A DNA stretch of 64,000 nucleotides. Source: Eledone cirrhosa. Its lineage: Eukaryota. The notes under the pieces are model-generated. The model saw nothing but the letters and a program-made list of their open reading frames with translations, was not told the origin of the DNA and made no database searches. This document shows positions 5,522-64,000 of the stretch, one piece after another (position 1 is the stretch's first letter; each line of letters starts with the position of its first letter). The translations under genes were made by a program, and so were the position numbers. The stretch is taken from assembly GCA_964016885.1 (NCBI GenBank), contig OZ024740.1:374976001-375040000 (forward strand), in the 5' to 3' direction.

Positions 5522-5639
5522 TATAAATTCAGAACATTGATTAATATTTGTGAAATATACATATAAAAGTACTCTATGTATAAATTCAGAACATTGATTA
5601 ATATTTGTGAAATATACATATAAAAGTACTCTATGTAAA
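5522..5639. repeat. 59-bp direct tandem duplication
   Basis: tataaattcagaacattgatt...tactctatgta occurs twice back to back. Confidence 0.9.
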
Positions 5640-8141
5640 TAAGCATATCTTAATTACGAAAATGTGATGTACTCTTTCATATAAAATTGATATAACCACA
5701 AATAATAATTGTTCCTACTTTAGGCACAATGCCAGCAATTACCCAGTGCATTACTAATAATGCTTGTTCAATGCTTCTGTAAATTACCCTCTCTAATTAC
5801 ATGAAGTCGGCCATTAAATTACTGATCAGACGAACATATGATGTTGTATATATATATACTACATTTATTAATTATAAACTTTCGGCATTTATTTATATCA
5901 AAAATTAAATGTATGTCATTGTTATGATTAATACGCCAATGGCATATTACGCTTTACGTAATTATGTTTAAATGCCAGGCTTGCTTCTGTGATCTGGTTG
6001 GGTAACATAAGGTTAGTGGCACAAGCGGAGTAAATTGTAGACTAATTTCATAGTCACTGCTAAAACATGTTTTCTTCTGGGTAAGATTATTTATCTTAGA
6101 TCAATTGTTATCTACCAGACTATTGATTAAAGACATCCTATGTGTTGTCATCTCCAACATTATGCGCTATACTATTTGATATTCTGATTATATGAATAGG
6201 TTCGAGCACAATGCAAACTATCTAATACGAAATAAATACAGAAAGAAACGCATTAAAGTTTGCACATAAAAAAAATCAGGAAATAATATAGATCGAAGTA
6301 ATTTAAAAAATCATCCATTGAAATTCTAAGCCACTAGAAATAACTTGGACATGCCACACGGAATATATGTTCCATTTTGAAAGAGACATTGTCTATAGTC
6401 TATATAACAAGGGTTTAGAATCAATGCGTCATTTTAATAATTTATTTGTGTGTCAGAAACAGGGAAACTGAAAATATACTAACAAAGGTTTATGCTGATA
6501 TGCCGTAATAGAATACCTGGACAGACAGAAAAGCTGGAGGTAAGAGGAATTAGATGTAGTGTGCAGTCGAAAAGACTGCTAAGGCATGGGTATAAGTTAT
6601 AGAGGGGTGGTGTTCGTTGAGTGAAGGAAGCTACAGAAGAGGAAGATATGTATGCAAACAAAATGGCGGTATAGAAGGAATCGGATATGTACTGCAAGAA
6701 AGAAGTCTATACTGGTATAGACATTTATGTGTATGGATAGTGATTGGCAGGAGACCCCAGTGGAAGAAGATGCAATAGAGGACAAGCAAAATTGTTCTAG
6801 ATAAAAAGAAAAACAGGAAATAAGATGAATCAGATTTAGTGTGGGAGAGAGAGGATTGTGCTTGCCTAGTCTTGTGATATTAATGGAGGATGTTTATTAG
6901 GTGAAGGAATGTCAGGTGATAGCAGAGTTAGAGGTAAACAGGAAGATGCTTGTTGTACGAAACGATTGCAGGATGCTAAATCTCAGAGGAGAGATGGCAG
7001 AGGATTTTGGAAGGAAGATGTAGAATAGGTAAAGGCAAACGGAGAGATGCTGTAATGGCGGTGACTCATCTAACCTGTGAAACTATGAAAAAAGCAAAGG
7101 AAGAAAATGAAAACATGTGTGCTTTACTTTATATATATTGAAAATATATATACTTTGAATATGCTGTTAATATTTACTCCATATATTTTCAATATACACA
7201 TTATATTGCATATATACACTATATATATTTACATATACACTCTGTATATTCTAATTATAAACTCTGCTCATGGATATTCCGTGCTTAAAACAAGGAAAGG
7301 GATCTCATAACAAATAAAACAAAATAACTTGATTATATTCATGTGTCCGAACACACCGAGAAGATGGATCTTACGAAGTGGGAGAACAAAAGACTGAAAT
7401 ACAAGCTGATAACATCTATGAAAGGTAGTAATGGATTAACTTTCAAAAGAATCAGACCTCAGAGATTAAAAACATAAAGTTACGTAGAATTACAAAGGAG
7501 GGCTTACTCAACAGTGGTGAAATATTTGCATAATTCTTTGATCGATGAATATTTTCTATGGAGGTTATATGTGAATTGTTTCGTGTTATATGTAGCAAGA
7601 GGAAAGGCCATGCCGGGATCATCTCGTTGATTCGGTGTATGTTACTGATGCTAGAAATGATATGCTTTGAGTATGTGAACATTATTTATTGTATATAGAT
7701 AGAAAAGTGGGGATGAAAATTATTGAGAATCGACACTTGATGTCTTTGTCACATCCTTCTTAGCCGTTAGTCAACAACTTGAAACAATGCACGTGTTATT
7801 TATATTAGAGATGTATGTTATATTTCAGAAATAAAATTCACAATTTGCCTCGATTCACTGCAAGCATTTTCAAAGTATAATATGTTTTATTTGGCACCAC
7901 TTAGACTATAGAGATGCAATGAATAGTTTCTGTGGTTTATATATCTTTTTATAATTAAATTTGCCATTGACAATAATGTAAACATCCCGCCTGTTGTCTG
8001 ACAATAACAAGGCGATTTGTAACATAATATCCATTTGATATTCATTTAATGGATTTACAGAATATTTTAAACACATGGACTGACATTTGTTTCAAGAACG
8101 AACTGCATTCATCATTACGTAAAATTCGCGACTAACATATA

Positions 8142-19807: not shown

Positions 19808-20634
19808 ATGATTGACCTCGATGTCACGTGATTGATTCTTTTTGAATTTGCCACCGACGCAGTAGGCAGTGATTTTCTCAATGGCTAGGAATTCAGTCCA
19901 CGCTTTGCTATTTTCTATCCACTGAATTATTTTTGTATAAGTTTCCAGAGTCCACGCTTTGCCTGGATACTTAGCTGAGAATAAACTTCCCAGACGACGA
20001 AATGCTTCTCAATATTTTCTTCGGAACATATATTTATTCCATTTCAGAAACTAATTAGTTGGGAGTGAAATTTTAGTAAGTAAGTTAATTTTATAATTTT
20101 CTTATTTTACGTCTCTCATATTATTGTTCTGCAACCCCATGCATTGAACCACAAAGTTACTAAGACAAAACTTATATATTTGCTAGCATGATATGCATCT
20201 GTATGTATATATATGTTACTAGATATTAATTCTTTATAATTATCTCCAAATTATTTGTCGAGCAATATTGGCCAAGACTGCTGCTATGGTAGCAGGCAGG
20301 CCGCTGTCTTCTTAACAAACCACTTTCCACTGATTGACTTCGATGTCACGTGATTGATTCTTTTTGAATTTGCCACCGACGCAGTAGGCAGTGTTTTCTC
20401 AATGGCTAGGAATTCAGTCCACGCTTTGCTATTTTCTATCCACTGAATTATTTTTGTATAAGTTTCCAGAGTCCACGCTTTGCCTGGATACTTAGCTGAG
20501 AATAAACTTCCCTGACGACGAAATGCTTCTCAATATTTTCTTCGGAAAGTATATTTATTCCATTTCAGAAACTAATTAGTTGGGAGTGAAATTTTAGTAA
20601 GTAAGTTAATTTTATAATTTTCTTATTTTACGTC
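19808..20634 (+). mobile_element. ~521-bp tandem non-coding HHR repeat (retrozyme-like family A), about 1.6 units
   Basis: Direct repeat with period 521 (19985 vs 20506), one HHR per unit, flanked by TA tracts, no ORF. Confidence 0.8.
20506..20587 (+). ncRNA. Family A type I hammerhead, intact (the sister copy at 19985-20066 has a core mutation, CAGACGA)
   Basis: ACTTCC CTGACGA CGAAATG...[ATTTTC-TTCG-GAAAGT]...CATTTCA GAAA CTAATTAG TT|GGGAGT. Confidence 0.85.
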
Positions 20635-20743
20635 ACTTATATATATATATAGCGAAGGAAAAGTGGTAAGGAACCAGGTGGACCATAACGCACCAAAGTA
20701 CTCAATACTTAGGGTAGTAGAGTGGGTAATAGGAGTAAGTAAG

Positions 20744-20838
20744 ACCCCGACGGCTGAGCTCAAGCCGTTTCGACGGCTAATTCTGTACTGAATGAAAAAT
20801 CAGTTCTGGTATTTAAATAGCCGAACTTGTCAAGGGGC
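20744..20838 (-). ncRNA. PLE-1 pLTR hammerhead with U3-A8 core variant (second copy at 24321-24415)
   Basis: GCCCC TTGACAA GttCGGCTA...TAGCCGtC GAAA CGGCT-tgagctc-AGCCG TC|GGGGT; GUC triplet. Confidence 0.75.
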
Positions 20839-21174
20839 AATTCCATATATGGTCAAAGAGATAATCACCAGGATTGGTCATCCCACAAGGTAGTAGTAAT
20901 TCAGCGATGGCAGGTTGGTGGGGGAGGTAGCCAAACGTGCCAGTAGGAGAAAAGGGGAGAGGGGGCGGAGTAGACCCATTCATGCGTTGGTGGTGCCAGC
21001 TACAGCTGGGTGTGAGGTCAAAGAGGACGCCGGGGAGGGGGAGGAGGTCAAAACGGTAAGTAGAACGATGAAAATGTAAAACTGTAAAAGGTACTGAGAG
21101 AGAAAAGAAATATAAGCAGAATCTGGTTACTAAGACTTAATTCTCTCGCTATTGCTAGGCTGAAGAAATGCATA

Positions 21175-21390
21175 AATAAGTAAATAAGAAATACATAAAT
21201 AATATTCCACATAAGTAAATAAGAAATACAAAAATAATATTCCACATAAGTAAATAAGAAAAACATAAAGAATATTCCACATAAGAAAATAAGAAATATG
21301 TAAATAATATTCCACATAAGTAAATAAGAAATACATAAGTAATATTCCACATAAGTAAATAAGAAATACGTAAATGATATTCCACAAGAA
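21175..21390. repeat. 35-bp minisatellite (~6 copies) in the PLE-1 3' UTR
   Basis: atattccac recurs at 21202, 21237, 21272, 21307, 21342 and 21377. Confidence 0.92.
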
Positions 21391-21977
21391 AAACATAAAT
21401 GAGTAAATAAACAAATAAGTGAGTAAAAGGATGGATAGATAGATTTAAAAAAAATATATATATATATATATATATATAATGTAGTATAAAAAAAATAAGA
21501 AAACAAATGATAATGATAGAAAAAAAAACCTAGGTGTGACGGAGATAAAGGGACCCTTATGCGGGTATAAGTGCGTGTATCGTACGGTGACGGGTCAACA
21601 GAGAGGGGGGGTCGGAATACTACAGAGACCACCACGAAAAAAAAAATAAATAACGGTTTCTACCCCAAACACCGGGCCAGCAACCACCCAGTGCAGGAAA
21701 GTAGACTAGTACGAGAATATAATTCAGGGTCCCGCAAAAAAATACTGGTGCTAACTCTAAGGTTACCGCCACGAAACAAAATGTCTTATACAAGCTACAT
21801 GGAAAGTCGTACGAATTAAAAATAAAGAACGGAAAATTAATACAGGAAAAAGGGAGAAAAGGGAAAAAGGGAAAAAGAAGAAAGAGATACTGGATCGATA
21901 AAAAAAGGTGTAAAAGAAGATCTTACGTCTCCATAGGCAAGCAGGGGTTACCCATTACAAAATAGGCATGTGGGGTG

Positions 21978-24150
21978 TTATAGGCTACCCCCCGGGTCAT
22001 TATGGGGTTTGAGGGCGAGGTAAGTCCTACGTAATAGGTGTTTACATGCAGTAACCAGTTCATCTTTCTTGTTAAGGAGTTGGTCCGTCGAAAACAACAT
22101 TTGTAATGTTTCCTCCGAGCATAAATTGCACGGACGGCGTCCCCCCGTGTAGGAGTTGGCTCTGGATAGTAATTTCCAAGTGAGATCATAGTTGATGTTG
22201 TTGTCCTTGAGGTCCCATATGTGGCCCGAATGTGTAGTGGCGTGACGCCGGGCCGGGTTTCGGAAGGTATGTCTGTGTTGGTATAGCCGGGTCTTGAAGT
22301 CGCATGCGGTCAATCCTATATAAGCTTTGTTGGAGGTGTCCGTGCTCACGTTGCACTGGTAGATCACATTACGGTCTCTGCATCTGTTGTCGAGGGGGCA
22401 ACTTGATCTATCAGGACAGTTGCACCACCTGGTCGGCTCTCCACTGCTATTTGGGTTGTTTCTTCCATCGGGGTTGAGTTTTTTGTTGTTGGAGGAGACG
22501 ATGTTTTGTGCGAAGTTAGGTGTAGTGCTGTAAGAGAGTTTGATGGTATTTTTGTTAATTATGTTGTGGTAGCGGTGTTGTGGTGGGAAGTGTTTTTTCC
22601 ATGAGCCTAAAGAAAATGTTCCCGATGGGAGTTGTCACCTCAGCGTTGTGGGGAGGATTGAACAATGTTACATTTCGTGAGCGGCGGTGTCGCCTGCTGG
22701 TTCCGCTAATGGGAGCTGGACAGTAGGATATTTCCTCCCGGAAACCACTCCGCTTGAGGGCCTGGTTGTAGTAAGGCGCGTGTTCATCGAATATCCTCTC
22801 ATTAGCTGACAAACGGGATATACGGAGGGAGATGTTTTTGACCAGGTTGTTGGTGATATTCTTGGGATGGTTAGATCGGCGGTGGATGTAGTGCAGGTTG
22901 TCATTGGGTTTCCTGTATGGGTAGTACAGGTCATTGTTGAGATCGAGGGTAACGTCCAGGAAATTAACTCGGGTCAGGGACGTCTGTAGGGTTATTTAAA
23001 ATCCCCAGTCGCGGAAGAAGCTGATTAATTGTTTACGGACCCGGTCTGTACTACTGGCGTTGTACCCTTTACGGGTAAGGAGCCCATCATCACGGTACAA
23101 TCCACCACCAAAAGCCGGAAACATATCGGTGAGTTTGGCTATCAGGAATAATCCTATAAGATCTGTGACCTCCGCCGAGTCCGTAGCGCCCATGCTGACG
23201 TCGAAGGGTGAGTCGGGAGCTCTTTTTATCCATTTGGAGTTGTCAAAGAGTAAGACTGTCTTCCTGGCGTGGAGGATGATTTTTCTTTCCTGGTCGGTGA
23301 TGGGCACAAGTGCTTCGGCGAAGTCCAAGGCGGCAGTGAGTAGCGGTAAGGTGATTGAAGCGTAGTAGCTCTCTATGTCGAACTGGATAAATTTAGTGTC
23401 TCGTTTATCCTCCAAATTGCTGAACCATGAGACAACTTCCTGGGTGTTAATCCATAGGCTAAGTCGGGCGTGTTGCTTGACTTTAGGTCTCACGCGGTCT
23501 AGGATTTTTTTGCTGATTCTCCCTATGTCGGACTTTGTTGGATTTATAAGCCTGATAGATGGTTTACGGTCGAAATCAGATTTGTGGTCCTTCAGTGTGA
23601 AGTAGGGTGTCCGTGGGTCTAGGGGTTCGGTGCGGTCGGCGACCCCGAGGCTAGGGGTAATTTGTTGTCCATCTCGATTAATGTCCTCGAGGCATGAGTG
23701 GTTGGCCTTTTTATAGGTGGAGTTTAGACTGTTCCTGATCAGTGTGTGGTATCTGTCTGGGTTGACAAAGTATAGGTTCCCAGTTTTATCCTAATGCGCC
23801 ATGATGTCATTGGTGTTATCATACTCTGTTTCAGTTGCTACGGAGTTTTTGTAGGAATCGGTTGTGTCTGGGTTTGAATGTAAGGTTCTTGACCAGTTGG
23901 AAGAGGTCATTCTCGAAGGGTGAGAGCAAAGGGTTCGGAGGGGGAGATTTGTAGGTAATAAATCCGAATCTCCCCTTGGTATCGAAGTCCTGAATGTCGC
24001 AGAATCTGTCGTAGAAAAAAGTTCTCCATCTAAGTCTTTTCGCAAATAGGTCGATTTTTTGCGTGAGCATCCGAAGGTAAAGTTTTTTCGGTGGGATTGG
24101 GATGTTCTTGGTAGAGAAGTCGATATTGTGTTTTCGGATGGTGCGGGTGC
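21978..24150 (-). pseudogene. PLE-1 RT + GIY-YIG endonuclease ORF, interrupted by stops and frameshifts
   Basis: FSTKNIPIP, DKTGNLY, QFDIESYY, MGATDSAEV, LYRDDGL, VNFLDVTL, CNC..CPL..C, IYQC..YIGLT..FKTRLYQH, WDLK, CNLC. Confidence 0.9.
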
Positions 24151-24593
24151 AACAAAATGAGCTCGGCGGAAACGGATACGGCGTGGTAAGGTCGGATAGT
24201 GCTCTACTACGGGGATAGGAGCTAGATAGCGAAGGAAAAGTGGTAAGGAACCAGGTGGACCATAACGCACCAAAGTACTCAATACTTAGGGTAGTAGAGT
24301 GGGTAATAGGAGTAAGTAAGACCCCGAAGGCTGAGCTCAAGCCGTTTCGACGGCTAATTCTATACTGAATGAAAAATCAGTTCTGGTATTTAAATAGCCG
24401 AACTTGTCAAGGGACAATTCCATATATGGTCAAAGAGAAAATCACCAGGATTGGTCATACCACAAGGTAGTAGAAATTCAGCGATGGCAGGTTGGTGGGG
24501 GAGGTAGCCAAACCTGCCAGTAGGAGAAAAGGGGAGAGGAGCGGAGTAGACCCATTCATGCGTTGGTAGTGCCAGCTACAGCTGGGTGTGAGG

Positions 24594-25380
24594 TCCAACT
24601 AATTAGTTTCTGCAATGGGATAAAGACAGTTACGTAATCTAACTGTCGAGAATTCATTGCGTCATCAGGTAGTCTATTCTCAGCTAAGTCTCCAGGCAAT
24701 GCGCGGACACTGGCGGCTCATATAAAAATAATAATAATTCGGTAGATGGAACAGCTAGCGAGGACTAAATTCCATGCACTGAAATCCTCACTGCTTCTAG
24801 TCAAATGGCCGATTCTAAAGAATCAATCACGTGACACAGAGGCTAGTCAGAAGGAATGGGATGGTAAGATGACTGACGCCTACTAACACCCCCCAAAAAA
24901 AATTTTTTGGAAGTGGTTTTGGCAGGTTTGCTCGACAAATCAGTGATTTGGAGATAAATATAGATAATTTAATATATCAACTAACATAAGCGCACAGATG
25001 CACGCCTATGCCAGCAAATACACAGGTTATGTCATAGTTCCTAGGTGGTTCAATGCAGGAGGATGCAGAACAATAATATAAAAGACGTAAAATAAGAAAA
25101 TATTTTTAAAAAAAATTTTTTTTTTAAATTTTTTAAAAAAATTTTTAAAAAAAATTTGTTACTTACTTACTTAAATTTTCACTCCAACTAATTAGTTTCT
25201 GCAATGGGATAAAGACAGTTACGTAATCTTGCTGTCGAGAATTCATTGCGTCATCAGGGAGTCTATTCTCAGCTAAGTCTCCAGGCAATGCGCGGACACT
25301 GGCGGCTCATATAAAAATAATAATAATTCGGTAGATGGAACAGCTAGCGAGGACTAAATTCCATACACTGAAATCCTCAC
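24594..25380 (-). mobile_element. Family A partial tandem (second subfamily), HHRs at 24594-24673 and 25181-25262
   Basis: ACTCC CTGATGA CGCAATG...CATTGCA GAAA CTAATTAG TT|GGAGT; homologous to 19808-20634. Confidence 0.8.
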
Positions 25381-26300
25381 ATGGTGGTGATTTCCTCGTG
25401 AAAGTCATCCGGTATTTATCAGATAGCAAACAGTGTTTGAATTAATAGATACCAGGGGACTACATATAACCATTAGTTTGTTGAGCCCCTTATTGTTTCT
25501 ACCCCTCTCCAGCACTAAGGTGACGGTGGGAACTAGTCTCCCATATCGCACCCACTTTACGAGTGTTCATATAGTTAGCAAGTCATAAGCATGAAGACAA
25601 AGTTTGAGAATCCTTTCCCTTCCTCCCTCCACTCTAGCAAACGTTGTGATGGTGGTTGTAATAGTATTAAACAATGTATCATCCCCTGCCTATTAGATTT
25701 ATAACTCTAAATCGATAGGTGTCGGTGAAAGTTATAGGGTGGGAAATAACAGTAAATCAAAGATTGAATAAAGAATGTAGATTAAATTAGTAATTAAATT
25801 AATAGGATTTAAGTAAATAAAATTTATATTTTAACAAATATTAAATATAGGGATTAATGAGGCTATGAGGTGACTAGGCGAAGAGAGATATACAAAAAAT
25901 AAATAAAAATGTACATACAGTAATTTAAAAAAAAATAAAAATAAGAGCAATGGAAATATGGAGAGAGGATTAGTGCAAATAGTGAAGTGAACATAGAAGA
26001 CAAAAATAGAAGAATAAAGGAGGATAACGAAAAAACGAGCGAGGCATATATGTAATACAGAATATTGCATGATATATAATATAACATATACTAGGTATGT
26101 AACTGATCTGACGCCTTATCTGAAACAGCTGCGTTAAGGTAGATTTTGTGTGCAATCATATTCGTAGTGAATGTTTCCCTCGGAGATAAATATTTCCGTA
26201 TTTATTATTAACATTTACAGTCAATTGTGGCGTGCGTGTGTGTGTATATATATATATATATATGTATATGTGTGTGTGGGTGTGTGTGTGGGTGTGTATG

Positions 26301-39319: not shown

Positions 39320-39462
39320 GTATGAAAATAGCCATGACCTCGACGGCTGACCTCCGGATCTAGCTGCCGAAACTCTTTTCATATTACCCACTCTACATCC
39401 CTAAGAGCTGAGTAGTGTGGTGCGTTATGGTCCACCTGGTATCTTACCACACCCTTTTTGCC
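39320..39462 (+). mobile_element. Solo tail related to the PLE-1 pLTR
   Basis: ggtgcgttatggtccacctgg is the reverse complement of 20674-20694. Confidence 0.75.
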
Positions 39463-39509
<47 letters not shown>

Positions 39510-39520
39510 TATGTATATAT

Positions 39521-42500
39521 GGTAAATTTCTTTAAGTCGTTTGGAAGCCTCGAAAATGCAGATGGGTAAATCTCTGGGTAACAAGATCCGGTGGTGGAGC
39601 GAGAGATGTAAGTGGGTGTACGTTGAGATGCGTGGCGTGTATAAGACATGTAGAGGAATGAAGGAAAGAGCGTAAAGGATAAAATAAATGTAACAACACG
39701 AGAAAGAGTTACCTTGGGAGAGATTTAATTGTCCCTATATGGTGTCCTCCGATGTTCGTTGTTTTGAATATCTGAGGTATTCGGCAGAGCGCGCGTGCGC
39801 TTGAAATGGGATCGATCAGACAGAGGTCAGCGGCCGAAGTAGTTATTTCGATCGTGGGAGTGGGGTGGAGCTATCTGTCAGTCCATGCTCTGCCTGTTTG
39901 GTGAATGTTACTGTGTGTGTGTGTATGTGTGTGTTGTTGTCTCGTTTGAATATGTGTGTGGGTTCGTGTGTTATTGCTTTGTTCCTCTGTATTGGCAGTG
40001 TAGTATGTTCGTATGGTGGAATGCTACTGTGCGTATGTGTGTGTTTGCTTGTGTTCTTGTCTCGCATGTGTGTGCGTGTGCGTGTGTTGGTGCATCGTTT
40101 GTTAACTTAAACCAACCACCTCATTTCGCTTCTCTCGGATCGCTTATTTAATTGTGGCCCTAGGCGTTTGATCCAAAGTGCTTCCTTGATACGTAACGTG
40201 CCGACGTTTCTTTCTGCCGCTACAATTGTGACAATGGGCCTTTCGTCTTTGTTTCCGCATTTGGCTTCGTGTTTCTGGAAAGACGAGACCCTAGTTTTAG
40301 TGTGTTCCTTGATCCGGATGTGCAACGGCGGATTGTGCTACATATATAGTATTGGTTGCACCTGTTTCATTCTATCTTATACAAGACGTATGTGCGTAGG
40401 CAACAGTTCGCATGGCGCATCGGGCTGTCTCTGAGGGAGCACGCGTCAGTTGATTTCCCGGGTTTCCTGGAGAGGCATCTTCGCAGCGAGGGGCCCGATT
40501 GGGCCAGGTGGATGTCGAGGCGCTCCCTCCGTATAGCATTTCGTATAGCGTTGGTGGTATTCTCGCCCAGGTGTGGCATTTTAAGGAAGCACTTGCCTTG
40601 GGTGCCTCTCTGTTTCTTGTGTCTGGTGTCTCCTACTCTGTCTTTGAGCGAGGTAGGGTACCCATTGGTTTCCAGCACCTCGAGGAATCGCTTGGTATGA
40701 GTGACACCACTCACAAGATCGCTACATCAGTTTTTGATTCGTGCGATCTCGTTCGTGATCTGTTGACACTGTTAGGGAGGGTGGACTTCTAGTGGATGAA
40801 CAGATCCCTGTAGGCTGCCTTTCGGTAGAAGTTGCAGTGGATCCCTCCCTGTTCCGCGATGTTGATTCGGAAGTCGAGGAGGGCAAGTGAACCGTCTTCG
40901 TTGGGGTGTTCAACATTGAAGTCAATGTTCTCGTCCGTGTTGTTGAACGTCTCATAGATTCTGTTCCCCATGTCTTGGGAAGATGTGAGGATGAGGATAT
41001 CGTTCACGTACCTTGAGAAAAAAACTACGGCGTTGGGGTGGCAGGCGTTGAGTGCCTTGCGCTGGAGGCTGTCCATCTAAGAGATCGCCAGCACACCCGA
41101 CAGGCTTGATTCCATGGGCAGTCCCGAGGTTTGTTGGTATGTTTGGTCAAGGAATCCGAAGTAGGTGTTGTCGACGACGATGGATAGGAGTTGGTGGATG
41201 TCAGTGGTGGTGAGCCCGAACCAGTGTAGGTCGGTGGATTGGACGCGTTCCATCAGTATATTGACGGCCGGGAGTGCCGGGACTAAAGTGTAGAGAGCGA
41301 CTACATCAAGGCCGAAGGCATATCTGTTATTCTTTCTGGTGTCGGGATCCATTTGATGCAGGTGCTTTCACACCACCTCGGAGCTGTTAACGTGTCCTGG
41401 CAAGGTGTCTAAGATGGGTTTGAGTATTCTGGCTAGGAGCCATGAAATTTTGTAGGGTGGTCCTTTCACGCTCGATACAATGGGCTTGATCTTCAGGTCG
41501 GGTCCCTGTTTGTGTGTTTTCACGAGGTGGTAAAAGGCGGGTAGTCTGCTGTTCCTCGTGAGAAGGTTGTATCTCTGCTTCTTCGCCAGCTTCCGCCGGT
41601 CGCAGATGTTGGTCCAGGCGGCGTTGATGTGCTCTTCTATCTGCGTGGGCGTGATTCCCGTGACCTTGGAGTAGAGGTTGTCATCTTCAAGGTGTTGGCG
41701 GTTCAGGGTGTTGTAGTCCTCTCTGCTGATGACGCAGAATTTTTTCCCTTGTCGGTGGGGAGGTAGATGAGGTTCTTCGATATTAGGTTGGAGAGAGTGG
41801 TGAGTTGAGATTTGTGACGTTGTGTGTTGTGCGTGTGTGTGTGTTTGTGTAGAATATACGAGATGGAGTATTTTAGCCTGATAACTTTAGTGTCGAGTTC
41901 GTGCTTTGTGGTTGGGGGGTGGAGTGGGCTGTTGCGGTGGTAAGTGGGAAACTTGGGTGGGTTGTGTGGGCGCTGTTATTTTCTGTGGTGCTGTTGATAG
42001 CGGTCACCCATTTAAGTTGGTAAGCGGCTCGACAAAATTTGCCTCGATGTTGAGTTTGAGTCTGTCGTCGAGTCGTTGTGAGACGATGAACTTGGTTCCG
42101 AGGTGTAGGAGTTTCAGCTCGTCGCTCGTGAGAGGGCCGGTTAGGTCGGTGACCAGGTGCGTCGCATCATTGAGGTGTGGCTCGGTGTTGGTGGATGCGG
42201 CGGTGGCGGTGTTAAGTTGTTGTTTTCCACGTGGTTCTGGTCCGTCTGTTCGTTAGTGTCGATGTTCTCGTTGTGGGGTTTAAACAAGATACACTCATAT
42301 TTTCGTTTGAGCCGTTTTTTCGTATTGGACTCTGGAGTGGTAGCACTGGTCGATTGCGTTAGTGATTTTCAGGAGCATGTCGCTGTGTGCTATTGACAGT
42401 CCATGTGTCCGCTCTGAGAGTGTCCGCTTATGGACGTGTAATTGGCGGTTGAGATGTACCAGGATCTGTTTAATACAGGTGCGATGTATGCGGTTAGTGG

Positions 42501-43045
42501 TGTTTTGGAAAGCTGGTGTACGCAGACTTACTGGTAAGCGGATGCTCCTGATGGTGTTGGGGATGACATCGTTTTTTAAGGCAGCGTTTCAGGAAAATAA
42601 TTTGACAGCCAGCATTGGCCCATTTCTTCGACAGTCTAAACAGTTCCCTTACGGATGCAAACAATTCCTGGCTCAGGTGTAAGGATAAGAGATTATTGAA
42701 GTTTGCTTGAAGCATTGTGGAATAATAAGGTAAATATCTTTAAGTCGTTTGGAAGCCTCGACAATGAAGATGGGTAAATCTCCGGGTAACAAGATCCGGT
42801 GGTGGAGAGAAAGATGTAAATGGGTGTACGTTGAGATGCATGGCGTGTATAAGACGTGTAGAGGAATGAAGGAAAGAGCGTAAATGATAAAAATAAAAAT
42901 AACAAGACGAGAGAGAGTTACCTTGGGAGAGATTGAATTGTCCCTATATATTTCGGATTCACATCCATCAACTGGGTTTTTCTTCCGGCAGGGGGGGAAG
43001 GTTGTCTGCCGGAAAGGTGAGAAACGTGTCCTCCGCTGTTCGATA
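39521..43045 (-). mobile_element. Penelope-like element PLE-2, near full-length with pLTRs, pseudogenised
   Basis: N-terminal FLKRCL; RT motifs LDVVALYT, QTSGLPM, RYVND; GIY-YIG motifs VLYKIE, HIRIKEH, IKEALWI..PQLN; repeats at 39521-39760 and ~42695-43045. Confidence 0.9.
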
Positions 43046-45637
43046 GACTCAAACTCAACATCAAGGCCAACTTTTGTCGAACCGCTTACCAACTTAAATG
43101 GATGACCGCCATCAACGGCGCCACAGAAAATAACAGCGCCCACGCAACCCACCCCAAGTTCACCATTTACCATCCTGAAAACCCACTCCACCCCCCACCC
43201 ACCAACCACGAACTCGACACTAAAATCATCAGCCTAAAACACTCCATCTCGGATATACTTCAAAAAACACACACACGCACAACACACAACCTCACCAAAT
43301 CTCAACTCACCACTCTCTCCAACCTAAAATCGAAGAACCACATCTACCTCCCCTCCGACAAGGGAAAAGAATTCTGCGTCATCAGCAGAGAGGCCTACAA
43401 CACCCTGGCCCTCCAACACCTTGACGATGACAACCTCTAGTCCAAGGTCACGGGAATCACTCCCGCGCAGATATAAGGGCACTTCAACGCCGCCTGGACC
43501 AACATCTGCGACCGGCGGAAGCTGCCGAAGAGGCTGAGATACAACCTTCTCACGAGGAACAGTAGACTACCGGCCTTCTACCACCTCGTGAAAACACACA
43601 AACAGGGACCCGACCTGTAGATCAGGCCCATTGTATCGTGCGTGGAAACCACTCTACAAAATTTCTTGGCTCCTAGCCAGAATACTCAAACCCATCTTAG
43701 ACACTTTGCCGGGACACGTTAACAGCTCCGAGGAGGTGTTGAAGCGCCTGCATCAAATTGATCCCGACACCAGAAAGATTAACAGATATGCCATCAGCCT
43801 TGATGTAGTCGCTCTCTACACCTCGGTCCCGGTACTCTCGGCCGTCAATATACTGATGGAACGCGTCCAATCTACCGACCTACACTGCTTCGCGCTCACC
43901 ACAGCTGACATCCACCAACTCCTATATATCGTCGTCGACAACACCTACTTCGGATTCCTTGACCAAACATACCAACAAACCTCGGGACTGCCCATGGGAT
44001 CAAGCCTGTCGGGTGTGCTAGCGATCTCTTAGATGGACAGCCTCCAGCGCAAGGCACTCAACGCCTGCCACCCCAACGCCGAAGCCTTTTTCTCAAGGTA
44101 GGTGGACGATATCCTCATCCTCACATCTTCCCAAGACATGGCGAACAGAATCTATGAGACGTTCAATAACACGGACGAGAACATTGACTTCAGTGTTGAA
44201 CACCCCAACGAAGACGGGTCACTTGCCCTCCTCGTCTTCCGAATCAACATCACGGAACAGGGAGGGATCCACTGCAACTTCTACCGAAAGGCAGCCTGCA
44301 GGGACCTGTTCGGCCACTACAAGTCCGCCCTCCCTAACAGTGCCAAAAGAGGATACACCACGAACGAGATCGCGCGAATCAAAAACAGATGCAACGATCC
44401 CGCGAGTGGTGTCACTCATACAAAGCATTCCTCGAGGCGCTGGCGATGAACGGGTACCCTATCTCGCTCACAGACAGAGTAGGAAAACACCAGACACAAG
44501 AGACAGAGAGGCACCCAGGCAAGTGCTTCCAAATAATGCCACCAACGCTATCCGCAAAGCTATACGGAGGGAACGCCTCGACATCCACCTAGCCCACTCG
44601 GACCCCTCTCTGCGAAGATGCCTCTCCAGTAAACCCGGGAAATCAACTGAGCGTGCTCCCTCAGAGACTGCCCGATGCGCAATGCGAACTGTTGCCTACG
44701 CACATACGTCTTGTATAAGATAGAATGTAACATTGCAACCAATACTATATATGTAGCACAATCCGCCGTTGGACATACGGATAAAGGAACACAGTAAAAC
44801 CAGGGCCTCGTCTTCCGGAAACACATAGCCAAATGCGGAAACAAAGACGGAAGGCCCATTGTCACAATTCTAGTGACAGAAAGAAACCACGGCACGTTAC
44901 GTATCAAGGAAGTACTTTGGATCAAACGCCTAGGGCCACAATTAAGCAACCAATCCGAGAGAAGCGAAATGAGGTGGTTCGTTTAAGTTAACAAACGATG
45001 CACCAACACACGCACACACAAACAAGCCAGACAGCAACACACGCACACACACACATACACACAGTAGCATTCCACCATACGAACATACTACACTGCCAAT
45101 ACAGAGGAACAAGGCAACAAAACACGCACCCACACACACACTCAAGCGAGACAACACACGCACACACACACACACAGTAACATTCACCAAACAGGCAGAG
45201 AATGGTCTGACAGATAGTGCCACCCCACTCCCACGATCGAAAGATCTACTTCGGCCGCTGACCTCTGCCTGAACGACCCCATTTCATGCGCACGCGCGGT
45301 CTGCTGAAAACCTAGGATATTCAAACCAACGAACAGCGGAGGACACGTTTCGCACCTTTCCGACAGACAACTCCCCCCCCCCTGGAAAAAAACTCCGTTT
45401 GATGGATTTGAATCCGAAATATATAGGGACAATTAAACCTCTCCCAAGGTAACTCTCTCTCGTGTGTTATTTTTATTTTTATCCTTTACGCTATTTCAAC
45501 GTACACCCACTTACATCTCTCGCTCTATCACCGGATTTGTTACACGGAGATTTACCCATCTCCATTGTCGAGGCTTCCAAACGACTTAAAGAAATTCACC
45601 TTATTATTCCACAATGCTTCAAGCAAACTTCAATACA
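43045..45637 (+). mobile_element. PLE-2 second copy, 5'-truncated, head-to-head with the first
   Basis: PSDKGKEF, SLDVVALYT, GLPMGSSLSG, VDDIL; inverted homology to 39521-42070. Confidence 0.9.
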
Positions 45638-57030: not shown

Positions 57031-57069
<39 letters not shown>

Positions 57070-57074
<5 letters not shown>

Positions 57075-57867
57075 GACGTAAATAAGAAAGTTATGAAAAT
57101 TGACTTACTTACTAAAATTTCACTCCAACTAATTAGTTTCTGTAAGGGGATAAATATAGTTACGTAATAACTATAGAGAAGCCTTACGTCATCAGGGAGT
57201 CTATTCTCAGCTAAGTTTCCAGGCAATGCGGGGACACTGGGAACTTATATAAAAATAATTCTGTGGATGGAAAAAGCGAGCGGGGCTAGATTCCAAGCCA
57301 TTGAAAAATTCACTGCCTTCTTGGTCAAGTGGCAAATACAAAAGAATCAATCACGTGACACTGAGGTTAACCAGCTTGGAGTGGGGGTGCTATTAAGACA
57401 GAGCCTAGCTACTACTATCAGTCACATTACGAATTTGGCAAATTTTGCTCAACAAATAATTTGGAGATAATTATAAAGAATTAATATATCTACCGACATA
57501 TGTATACAGATGCATACCTATGCTAGCAGATATATATGTTTTGTCTTAGTAACTCTGTGGTTATATGCAGGGGAATGCAGAACAATTATATGAAAGACGT
57601 AAATAAGAAAGTTATGAAAATTGACTTACTTACTAAAATTTCACTCCAACTAATTAGTTTCTGTAAGAGGATAAATATAGTTACGTAATAAACTAATTAG
57701 TTGGAGTGAAATTTTAGTAAGTAAATTTTCATAACTTTCTTATTTACGTCTTTCATATAATTGTTCTGCATTCCCCTGCATAGAACCACAAAGTTACTAA
57801 GACAAAACATATATATCTGCTAGCATAGGTGTGCATCTGTATACATATGTCGGTAGATATATTAATT

Positions 57868-57872
<5 letters not shown>
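57070..57872 (-). mobile_element. Family A third subfamily: 521-bp partial tandem (57071 vs 57592) plus inverted arm 57690-57872; intact HHR at 57122-57200
   Basis: ACTCC CTGATGA CGTAAGG...[TATAGTTA-ttacg-TAACTATA]...CCTTACA GAAA CTAATTAG TT|GGAGT. Confidence 0.82.
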
Positions 57873-57929
<57 letters not shown>

Positions 57930-58024: not shown

Positions 58025-58559
<535 letters not shown>

Positions 58560-59641: not shown

Positions 59642-59678
<37 letters not shown>

Positions 59679-59679
<1 letters not shown>

Positions 59680-59825
59680 CGAAGGAAATGTGGTAAGGAA
59701 CCAGGTGGACCATAACGCACCAAAGTACTCAATACTTAGGGTGGTAGAGTGGGTAATAGGAACGAGTAGGACCCAGAATTAGCCGTCGAAACGGCTTGAG
59801 CTCAGCCGTCAGGGTCCTACACGTT

Positions 59826-61898: not shown

Positions 61899-61940
<42 letters not shown>

Positions 61941-61943
<3 letters not shown>

Positions 61944-62585
61944 TATGTATACGTACATACATATATGTATACAGACGTACAGTAGTATATGTATATATAT
62001 ATATATACATACATGCACACATATATATATATGTACGTATGCATTCACCGAACATTTATTATGATGCTCGGTGTTTTTGTAAACAAACATCCCGAATTAA
62101 GCCGTACGGTGTCTAGCAACCATCGTTGCTCATTTGTTCAACCACCGTTGCTCATTTGTACATACTACTGTACGTCTGTATACATATATGTATGTACGTA
62201 TACATACTCATATTTAAGTAACAGCCGTACTAAGAGTGAGAAATGAAATTTCGTTTCATTTTTCCGTTTATCGTTTTCGGTACCCCGGCCGATTAACTCA
62301 CTCGATATGCAAATGAGGCTGCTCAGCCGTTAATATCCATATGGAAGTATATACTTTCAGACGTTCCACCATCTGTCAGGAAGGTATACTTTGCTGACGA
62401 TAGCTAATAAGCTTGAAACTAGTACAGCGTTCCTTTATCAGTATTGAACAAATGAGCAACGATGGTTGCTAGACACTGTACGGCTTAATTCGGGATGTTT
62501 GTTTACAAACACACCCAGCATTATAATAAATGTTCGGTGAATCCATACGTACATATATATATATATATATATGTGTGTGTGCATG

Positions 62586-62664
<79 letters not shown>

Positions 62665-62761
62665 TACTGTACCTCTGTATACATATATGTATGTACTTAT
62701 ACATACTTATATTTAAGTAACAGCCGTACTAAGAGTGAGAAATGAAATTTCGTTTCATTTT

Positions 62762-62770
<9 letters not shown>
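61941..62770 (+). mobile_element. Family B ~500-bp partial tandem (62162 vs 62661) with inverted arm 61941-62141
   Basis: Direct repeat atactactgtac...gaaatttcgtttcattttt; inverted copy of 62445-62710 with a shorter TA tract. Confidence 0.8.
62378..62434 (+). ncRNA. Family B minimal type I hammerhead
   Basis: AGGAA..TTG CTGACGA tAGCT-aata-AGCTt GAAA CTAG TA|CAG..TTCCT. Confidence 0.7.
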
Positions 62771-62825
<55 letters not shown>

Positions 62826-62828
<3 letters not shown>

Positions 62829-64000
62829 CAATATATTTAGAAACACACAGATGCATGCGGACACACACATATATACATGAATGCATCCTCCGCACCCAAC
62901 TGTGAGTTAAGGGTGCCAACTTCACCGGTGTTGCTCAATGAATGACCGGGACAGACCAATTCAGTTGAACTAGACTGAACCAGTATCAGAGTTAAAAATA
63001 CATTATGAAGAGAGAAGAAACATTTAGATATAATTAGTAATAAAATGTATCATACCTAAACTGCTCCTAAATTCCTCGACTACGTAGTTTCGTGGCATAA
63101 ACAAAAACAATATATCATAAAGATATAGAGTCCCTGCGAGGTCTGCCGACTTATCAAGAGGATACCTCATTTTACTAGTCTCAAGAACGCGTCTACACGA
63201 CGTGAGAAAGAATCCCAAAAGGCGGAGGGGGAGATAGTCACGCGATATAACGGTCGAGAAACAGAGCTAAGCCTCTTATAACCACGAAGAAAATAACACG
63301 GAGGCGGAGGGGGTATTCATATCGAGGCCGCAGAAGAGGTGGTGAAGAAGGCTAGAAGTATGAGTAATGGAAGCTTTCCAGTTGTCCCCACACTTCAAAG
63401 ATTGCTCGACCAGAGGGAGTTATTAACAATGAGGAATTTAGGAGCAGTTTAGGTATGATACATTTTATTACTAATTATATCTAAATGTTTCTTCTCTCTT
63501 CATAATGTATTTTTAACTCTGATACTGGTTCAGTCTAGTTCAACTGAATTGGTCTGTCCCGGTCATTCATTGAGCAACATCGGTGAAGTTGGCACCCTTA
63601 ACTCACAGTTGGGTGCGGATGCATTCATGTATATATGTGTGTGTCCGCATGTATCTGTGTGTTTCTAAATATATTGTTAATAACTCCCTCTGGTCGAGCA
63701 ATCTTTGAAGTGTGGGGACAACTGGAAAGCTTCCATTACTCATACTTCTAGCCTTCTTCACCACCTCTTCTGCGGCCTCGATATGAATACCCCCTCCGCC
63801 TCCGTGGTATTTTCTTCGTGGTTATAAGAGGCTTAGCTCTGTTTCTCGACCGTTATATCGCGTGACTATCTCCCCCTCCGCCTTTTGGGATTCTTTCTCA
63901 CGTCGTGTAGACGCGTTCTTGAGACTAGTAAAATGAGGTATCCTCTTGATAAGTCGGCAGACCTCGCAGGGACTCTATATCTTTATGATATATTGTTTTT
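62826..64000. mobile_element. Family C: 598-bp non-coding HHR unit (minus, 62826-63430) joined head-to-head to a circularly permuted plus copy (63431 to window end)
   Basis: 62826-63077 is inverted at 63431-63680, and 63103-63430 is inverted at 63674-64000; taacaat occurs at both ends of the left unit. Confidence 0.88.
63073..63162 (-). ncRNA. Family C type I hammerhead with U3-A8 core variant
   Basis: TCCTC TTGATAA GTcGGCA...TGCCAC GAAA CTACGTAG TC|GAGGA; helix III is the palindrome ACTACGTAGT; GUC triplet. Confidence 0.85.

Follow-up and report, generated by a model that had tools for sequence, protein, structure and literature searches.

A rare 5' junction between a retrozyme-like repeat and a Penelope-like element in Eledone cirrhosa, and family-wide insertion ends that point to Penelope-type mobilisation

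In the window, the whole 64,000-nucleotide stretch of Eledone cirrhosa DNA analysed here, a copy of a tandem hammerhead repeat that we call family A runs on the minus strand straight into pLTR sequence of a Penelope-like element (PLE) that we call PLE-1, with no TA spacer between them. This is a real, rare 5' junction of two known kinds of element. On its own it does not settle how retrozymes insert; the stronger result comes from the ends of family A insertions across the genome, which point to mobilisation of a Penelope type, with priming at internal sites downstream of the ribozyme. The features discussed below are:

19809..20637 (+): subfamily B of the retrozymes, a separate insertion of 1.6 units flanked by TA at either end, 74% identical to family A
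20638..20651: (TA)7 tract, with PLE-1 and subfamily B tail-to-tail on either side
20652..24595 (-): PLE-1 overall, adjoining family A at 24595
20652..21019 (-): 3' pLTR of PLE-1, which includes the long tail end and a hammerhead-like motif (GUC at 20751-20749)
21978..22634 (-): frame with the PLE-1 linker (CxCX5C) and C-terminal GIY-YIG endonuclease, from ORF motifs
22996..23790 (-): reverse transcriptase frame of PLE-1 (DKT, YRDD), interrupted by stops and frameshifts
24223..24595 (-): 5' pLTR of PLE-1, a truncated upstream copy with 10 substitutions in 374 columns relative to the 3' pLTR
24594..24596 (-): junction; the +1 G is family A only, GA is common to family A and PLE-1
24597..24674 (-): junction-side hammerhead of type I (CUGAUGA, long stem II, GAAAC, palindromic stem III, GUU)
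24597..25185 (-): full family A unit from predicted cut site to predicted cut site, 589 nt, 35% GC, non-coding (no ORF of at least 150 aa)
25186..25380 (-): 5'-truncated upstream family A unit with intact hammerhead, 195 nt, by comparison with the downstream unit
25381..26090 (-): old hammerhead-bearing repeat D, 60-70% identical to its paralogs

Structure of the junction and of its two partners

On the minus strand, the family A core beside the junction consists of CUGAUGA (24668-24662), GAAAC (24610-24606), the palindromic stem III and a predicted GUU (24599-24597). Behind the GUU come G at 24596, GA at 24595-24594 and then PLE-1 pLTR sequence, which matches the 3' pLTR from 21019 on. The initial annotation had described this direct continuity without a TA spacer and had placed the end of the unit within about 3 nt of its predicted cleavage site; both descriptions agree with a three-way alignment display, in which family A breaks off at +1 to +3, just beyond the predicted cut rather than at it. 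At 24596 the G agrees with family A and mismatches PLE-1. At the equivalent place nearly all of 101 distinct PLE-1 pLTR copies have T, and only one of the 101, the window copy, is joined to family A there. The proposed TTG/GA microhomology holds for the GA part, an exact overlap of 2 nt, and not for the longer match, which reaches 4 of 5 positions only if one mismatch is allowed.

The junction is single-copy: it was the sole spanning match among 40 scored candidates, and a filtered pattern search of the 3.0-Gb genome matched it once. This excludes a composite element that is mobile as one unit. A simple nested insertion, with the remainder of the same family A copy beyond PLE-1, is also excluded, because the far-side copy is subfamily B in inverted orientation, as the initial annotation had read it. 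Among the short unitigs and RAD reads listed none bridges the junction, so independent read support is absent; the outer join of family A (25380/25381) is bridged by one contig. No RNA run was listed among the sequencing data sets that matched. Across that outer join, repeat D is broken a few nucleotides before its own predicted cut, an unexplained coincidence, and relative to its paralogs ~95 nt of its tail and its TA tract are gone where family A begins. No continuation of the paralogs of the D flank was found across the far side of the element cluster.

Family A is tandem and non-coding, with GC under 50% and many dispersed copies: the genome has 4,369 occurrences of an exact 23-nt anchor and 13,339 of a 16-nt anchor common to the subfamilies. 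The hammerhead core, stems I-III and GUU are present in both window units, which differ by 4 substitutions in 195 nt, and the stem I strands covary between family A subfamilies. In the junction-side hammerhead, the 5' strand of stem I has one private C>A change and the 3' strand is cut short by the PLE-1 join. Rfam at gathering score gave no matches in the window, and a single-strand fold of one family A ribozyme was no better than shuffles (z -0.7) and therefore carries no weight here. Presumably the palindromic stem III reflects a dimer form. The classification of family A as a retrozyme-like type I hammerhead tandem repeat, putatively moved by Penelope-type machinery, is supported at the sequence level.

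Non-LTR retrozymes were defined by Cervera and de la Peña (2020; PMC7229834), who considered PLEs likely to mobilise them; the main text of that paper contains none of the words "inverted", "tail" and "microsatellite". As characterised in the sections of the literature cited here, metazoan non-LTR retrozymes resemble family A in being non-coding tandem units with low GC, a type I hammerhead in each unit and thousands of copies. Family A units are longer (520-590 nt) than the 170-400 nt given in PMC7229834, and lie within the 51-972 nt range of Li et al. (2026; bioRxiv 10.64898/2026.07.22.740005). Several other retrozyme copies show features of their own. At L244-L249 (G000:C2:312.61-312.66 Mb), family A forms a tandem array that is tens of kb long and in which an internal deletion recurs, a local satellite-like amplification. 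A copy at L237 (G000:C4:15411360) carries a run of A-to-G changes resembling an edited RNA template, and a third retrozyme subfamily is present in the window as a head-to-head pair (57058-57884). An ORF near one retrozyme copy (L057) we take, from its motif, to be reflectin-like, which is in keeping with a cephalopod host.

PLE-1 has a reverse transcriptase with a DKT motif, a CxCX5C linker and then a C-terminal GIY-YIG endonuclease with CxxC and CxH around conserved E and N; CCHH is absent. It uses (TA)n targets and occurs as partial tandems and with inverted arms. All these traits, together with the 5' truncation of the inverted arms and a tail at one end, are shared with the Hydra clade of EN+ PLEs in the sections of Craig et al. 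(2021; PMC8557442) used here, in which inverted arms and a one-end tail are described. PLE-1 differs from that clade by RWR in place of the RWK motif, a U3-A8 hammerhead core, a unit of ~3.6 kb and, in the window, a broken ORF. Its hammerhead-like motif (20749-20830 and 24326-24410, minus) has three stems and GUC, and in the copies listed U3-A8 replaces the C3-G8 core pair, possibly as a compensatory variant. Pfam reported no families on three PLE-1 frames. Read from motifs and architecture rather than from an RT tree, PLE-1 would be a Hydra-like EN+ Penelope element. A 22-mer from its pLTR occurs 249 times in the genome. The 5' 790 nt of the window copy (23800-24590) have 16/790 private substitutions, compared with 17/2,259 elsewhere in the element, and fewer relatives were available for this 5' part. 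Short PLE-1 tail fragments lie in TA tracts at 59665-59820 and 39379-39475.

Insertion ends and breakpoints across the genome

We surveyed family A ends at the first 100 listed of the 4,369 anchor places, all on contig C1, representing 58 insertions; 100 anchors were scored, and 4 were skipped at locus edges. The arm continues into a next unit at 28 anchors and terminates at 72. Every one of the 72 terminal arms ends on a (TA)n or CT/TA tract at one of two fixed tail sites, either the short site at about +82 (43 arms, 2 of them with internal deletions) or the long site at about +205 (29 arms), and none ends at the ribozyme cut. Head-to-head pairs make up 35 of the 58 insertions, and in all 31 of those with both ends resolved (L096-L164) a short tail is paired with a long one. 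PLE-1, which has two tail sites of its own, likewise pairs a short with a long tail in 26 of 28 hand-picked two-armed loci. Abnormal family A ends are rare: an arm is broken mid-unit in 1/58 insertions (L129), and of 23 single-arm copies two have no microsatellite at their 5' join (of 8 flagged at first, 6 were cleared on inspection). Overlaps of 0-2 nt are the commonest at family A 5' joins (18/35).

Because tails lie at fixed sites on (TA)n and arms are paired short with long, family A appears to have moved with a Penelope-type footprint of internal priming. The two-tail rule suggests that two fixed sites serve for priming at both ends of a TA break. The footprint does not single out PLE-1. 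Until now the insertion of animal retrozymes has been argued from co-occurrence and pLTR homology, as in the sections of Li et al. (2026) cited here, and the family-wide ends contribute a direct footprint, in which each arm uses one of two fixed tail sites, on (TA)n, under a rule common to a Hydra-like PLE in the same genome. It argues against cleaved linear ends as reverse transcriptase start sites, which they would be almost never. Mapped ends of this kind, with two tail sites, (TA)n targets and head-to-head arms, set family A apart from retrozymes as described in the cited sections of the metazoan papers. Our searches, which left most subscription papers outside the literature covered, found no published work on retrozyme-PLE junctions or retrozyme tail sites. 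The nearest parallel is the Anolis PLE of Frangieh et al. (2024; PMC11167929), for which the sections consulted describe two reverse transcription start sites downstream of the hammerhead, AT-rich targets and no need for ribozyme cleavage; that system is an autonomous Poseidon element in vitro, whereas here the sites are genomic, belong to a non-autonomous repeat and are used strictly one per arm.

The 5' ends of PLE-1 were traced at the first 100 of its 249 places (101 arms; some re-fetched loci were perhaps counted twice). Nine arms ran off the locus, and the 92 resolved ones meet an inverted PLE-1 arm (59), a TA tract (15), other sequence (17, some of which are later insertions) or family A (1). 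Non-TA sequence thus follows 18/92 of the 5' ends. The one family A case is a second family A-to-PLE-1 join (L200/L263; G000:C2:378433000-378442000, minus, 5570-6774), in which a 72-nt piece from mid-unit, ending at about +325 and without TA on either side, meets the PLE-1 5' end with a 3-nt overlap and a short duplication. At a further locus, which came to light through the mid-unit control described below (L258; G000:C2:347163000-347172500, minus), a related retrozyme broken at +302 is joined to PLE-2, a distinct Penelope family with an RT 46% identical to that of PLE-1. Between two TA tracts this locus contains a retrozyme arm, a 47-nt fold-back, a 54-nt inverted piece and a PLE-2 partial tandem (pLTR pair of 1,083 nt, 96.9%); both outer ends are on TA at long tail sites, and ~280 nt were lost at the PLE 5' join. 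With both arms at the long site, it has the look of a retrozyme pair that was already resident when a different PLE trimmed it. Joins of retrozymes to PLEs therefore recur in three cases, each at another position, and involve two PLE families; only two join family A to PLE-1, and one of these is the case originally picked. PLE-1 tail pieces lie within ~3.4 kb of family A at 15/58 loci.

The initial annotation had suggested checking whether breakpoints pile up at the cut site. We used patterns filtered for copies in which both the +4 and the +5 letter differ from those of the family. Five of 4,369 subfamily A copies pass this filter, which recalls ~56% of random breaks in that subfamily: four are point or 1-nt variants, and the fifth is the window junction. 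Over all subfamilies, 10 of 13,339 pass, comprising five real breaks at 0 to +3, four small variants and one chance match. The five breaks (the window, L225, L229, L230 and L231) have five different neighbours, namely PLE-1, a TA tract, a SINE-like repeat and two others; L231 ends at +1 on the TA tract, and at L230 the SINE-like repeat is joined at a cut site through the same G+GA. At a mid-unit control site 16 of 7,765 copies pass, of which three are breaks to foreign sequence (L250, L253 and L257) and 13 stay in the family. Corrected for filter recall (25% and 19%), the break rate is 0.15% at the cut and 0.20% at the control, a ratio of 0.74 (95% CI 0.14-4.8) that rests on small counts (5/13,339 versus 3/7,765) and one control site. 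For subfamily A alone the control pattern gave 7 matches and no foreign breaks, with ~48 control anchors per 100 cut-site anchors in the sample. The counts are compatible with a few-fold excess at the cut and exclude a pile-up, and the position of the window break beside the predicted cut site is probably due to chance.

Origin of the junction

We give about an even chance to a single insertion during which PLE-1 cDNA captured, at its 5' end, an uncleaved (multimeric or circular) family A template. PLE-1, which ends at its long tail site, would have primed there on the (TA)n tract at 20638-20651, and copying would have halted in the upstream pLTR, where the element stops. The cDNA end may then have paired on GA inside family A and copied the 784 nt present today, through the intact ribozyme site, before being joined to repeat D; the ~95 nt and TA that the target lacks relative to the D paralogs would have been lost at that step. 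An uncleaved template is probable, since the +1 G is found in family A and not in PLE-1; the GA overlap fits such a template too, and the captured copy runs through an intact upstream ribozyme site. For the purified Anolis PLE, the cited part of PMC11167929 reports that ribozyme cleavage is unneeded and that RNA left unprocessed serves as the main template. Both ends of the window family A piece are abnormal, and one event explains both. Private substitutions are similarly frequent in family A (5/635) and PLE-1 (33/3,049; p = 0.67), a comparison that depends on the relatives sampled; such equal ages would allow one event or two close ones. Counting against capture, no empty allele or ortholog was seen among related organisms' contigs, none of which reached the unique flank, and the counted head-to-head joins are all within one family (35 in family A, 29 in PLE-1).

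A resident family A copy with a normal tail and TA could instead have been trimmed: PLE-1 would have landed in the TA, and its 5' join or a later deletion would have removed at least 80 nt of tail together with the TA, closing on GA with no RNA chimera. Shared TA neighbourhoods (15/58) and frequent loss of TA at PLE-1 5' ends (18/92) make such a history easy, since both elements target TA. Resident tails have been trimmed at 5' joins elsewhere (18 nt at L128, ~95 nt of D in the window), the loss at L258 is larger, and the SINE-like repeat at L230 makes the same G+GA join. Nevertheless, trimming needs a second uncommon event, the loss of TA at the family A 5' end (2/23), and L200 has the identical double anomaly. 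We regard it as somewhat unlikely. Repair could also have come last, if PLE-1 inserted first with its own 5' arm and TA and the DNA between D and PLE-1 subsequently broke, repair then leaving a deletion with family A as filler. This would likewise derive both abnormal ends from one event, and it accords with the fact that 59/92 PLE-1 arms have an inverted partner arm, which the window PLE-1 lacks. Endonuclease-independent L1 insertions, as described in the cited part of Sen et al. (2007; PMC1920257), accompany target deletions. Like 5'-junction chimeras of L1, they resemble the window junction in that foreign sequence is joined, via short microhomology, at a retroelement 5' end or at a deletion. 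However, none of the 58 sampled insertions is a family A copy with both ends abnormal, and the ages fail to separate family A from PLE-1; we consider filler repair quite improbable. Capture of an uncleaved template is favoured over trimming and filler because both family A ends are abnormal, in the window and at L200, while only 2/23 single-arm copies lack the microsatellite. The weights given to capture and its rivals are our judgement and were not computed.

The initial annotation had PLE-1 reverse transcriptase jumping onto a family A RNA at its self-cleaved 3' end. That the enzyme jumped between templates while PLE-1 inserted remains a fair reading, to which the second join at L200/L263 contributes; the self-cleaved end, in this form or with the RNA ligated to it, is very improbable and largely refuted. 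In its favour, the break is no more than 3 nt from the predicted cut, a TA tract follows the +1 end of L231, and the confidence interval for enrichment extends to 4.8-fold. Other reverse transcriptases can add one untemplated G at a jump, which would favour such an end, but the added G and a chance GA would together have to rebuild the next three bases of family A, and exact ligation would give no extra G. Chimeras of U6 and L1 have recurrent joins at the exact cyclic-phosphate end; the window join, unlike these, keeps bases past the predicted cut and has no recurrence there. Moreover, the PLE side lies ~270 nt from its own ribozyme motif, there is no pile-up at the cut, 0/72 sampled terminal arms start there, and in the other fusions the breaks lie mid-unit, at +325 and +302.

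The mobilising partner of family A

The junction had also been taken to identify PLE-1 as the autonomous partner of family A, which goes beyond the data; PLE-1 is a candidate partner and not identified as such. Family A has no similarity to the PLE-1 pLTR (best E 3.7-9.9) or to PLE-2 (best E 0.29) in a comparison that covered these two elements, whereas the retrozymes in the cited sections of Li et al. (2026) are homologous to PLE pLTRs. The tail lengths and ribozyme type of PLE-1 differ from those of family A, and the PLE-2 ribozyme (GUU, AATT-centred palindrome) is nearer to family A's in type. PLE-2 makes a like join, and more than 20 hammerhead types are present in 1.18 Mb of fetched loci.

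It is conceivable, though we think it unlikely, that PLE-1 reverse transcriptase handles family A RNA in vivo. The two joins would then be jumps between co-bound RNAs, and PLE-1 would insert family A from uncleaved or circular RNA, whose two fixed sites would serve for priming at the two ends of a TA break. If true, this would give a named retrozyme-PLE pair without pLTR homology. The window holds more inverted-arm structures at 40759-44350, 58035-58456 and 61922-64000; the first of these contains RT-like frames from a further element of PLE type.
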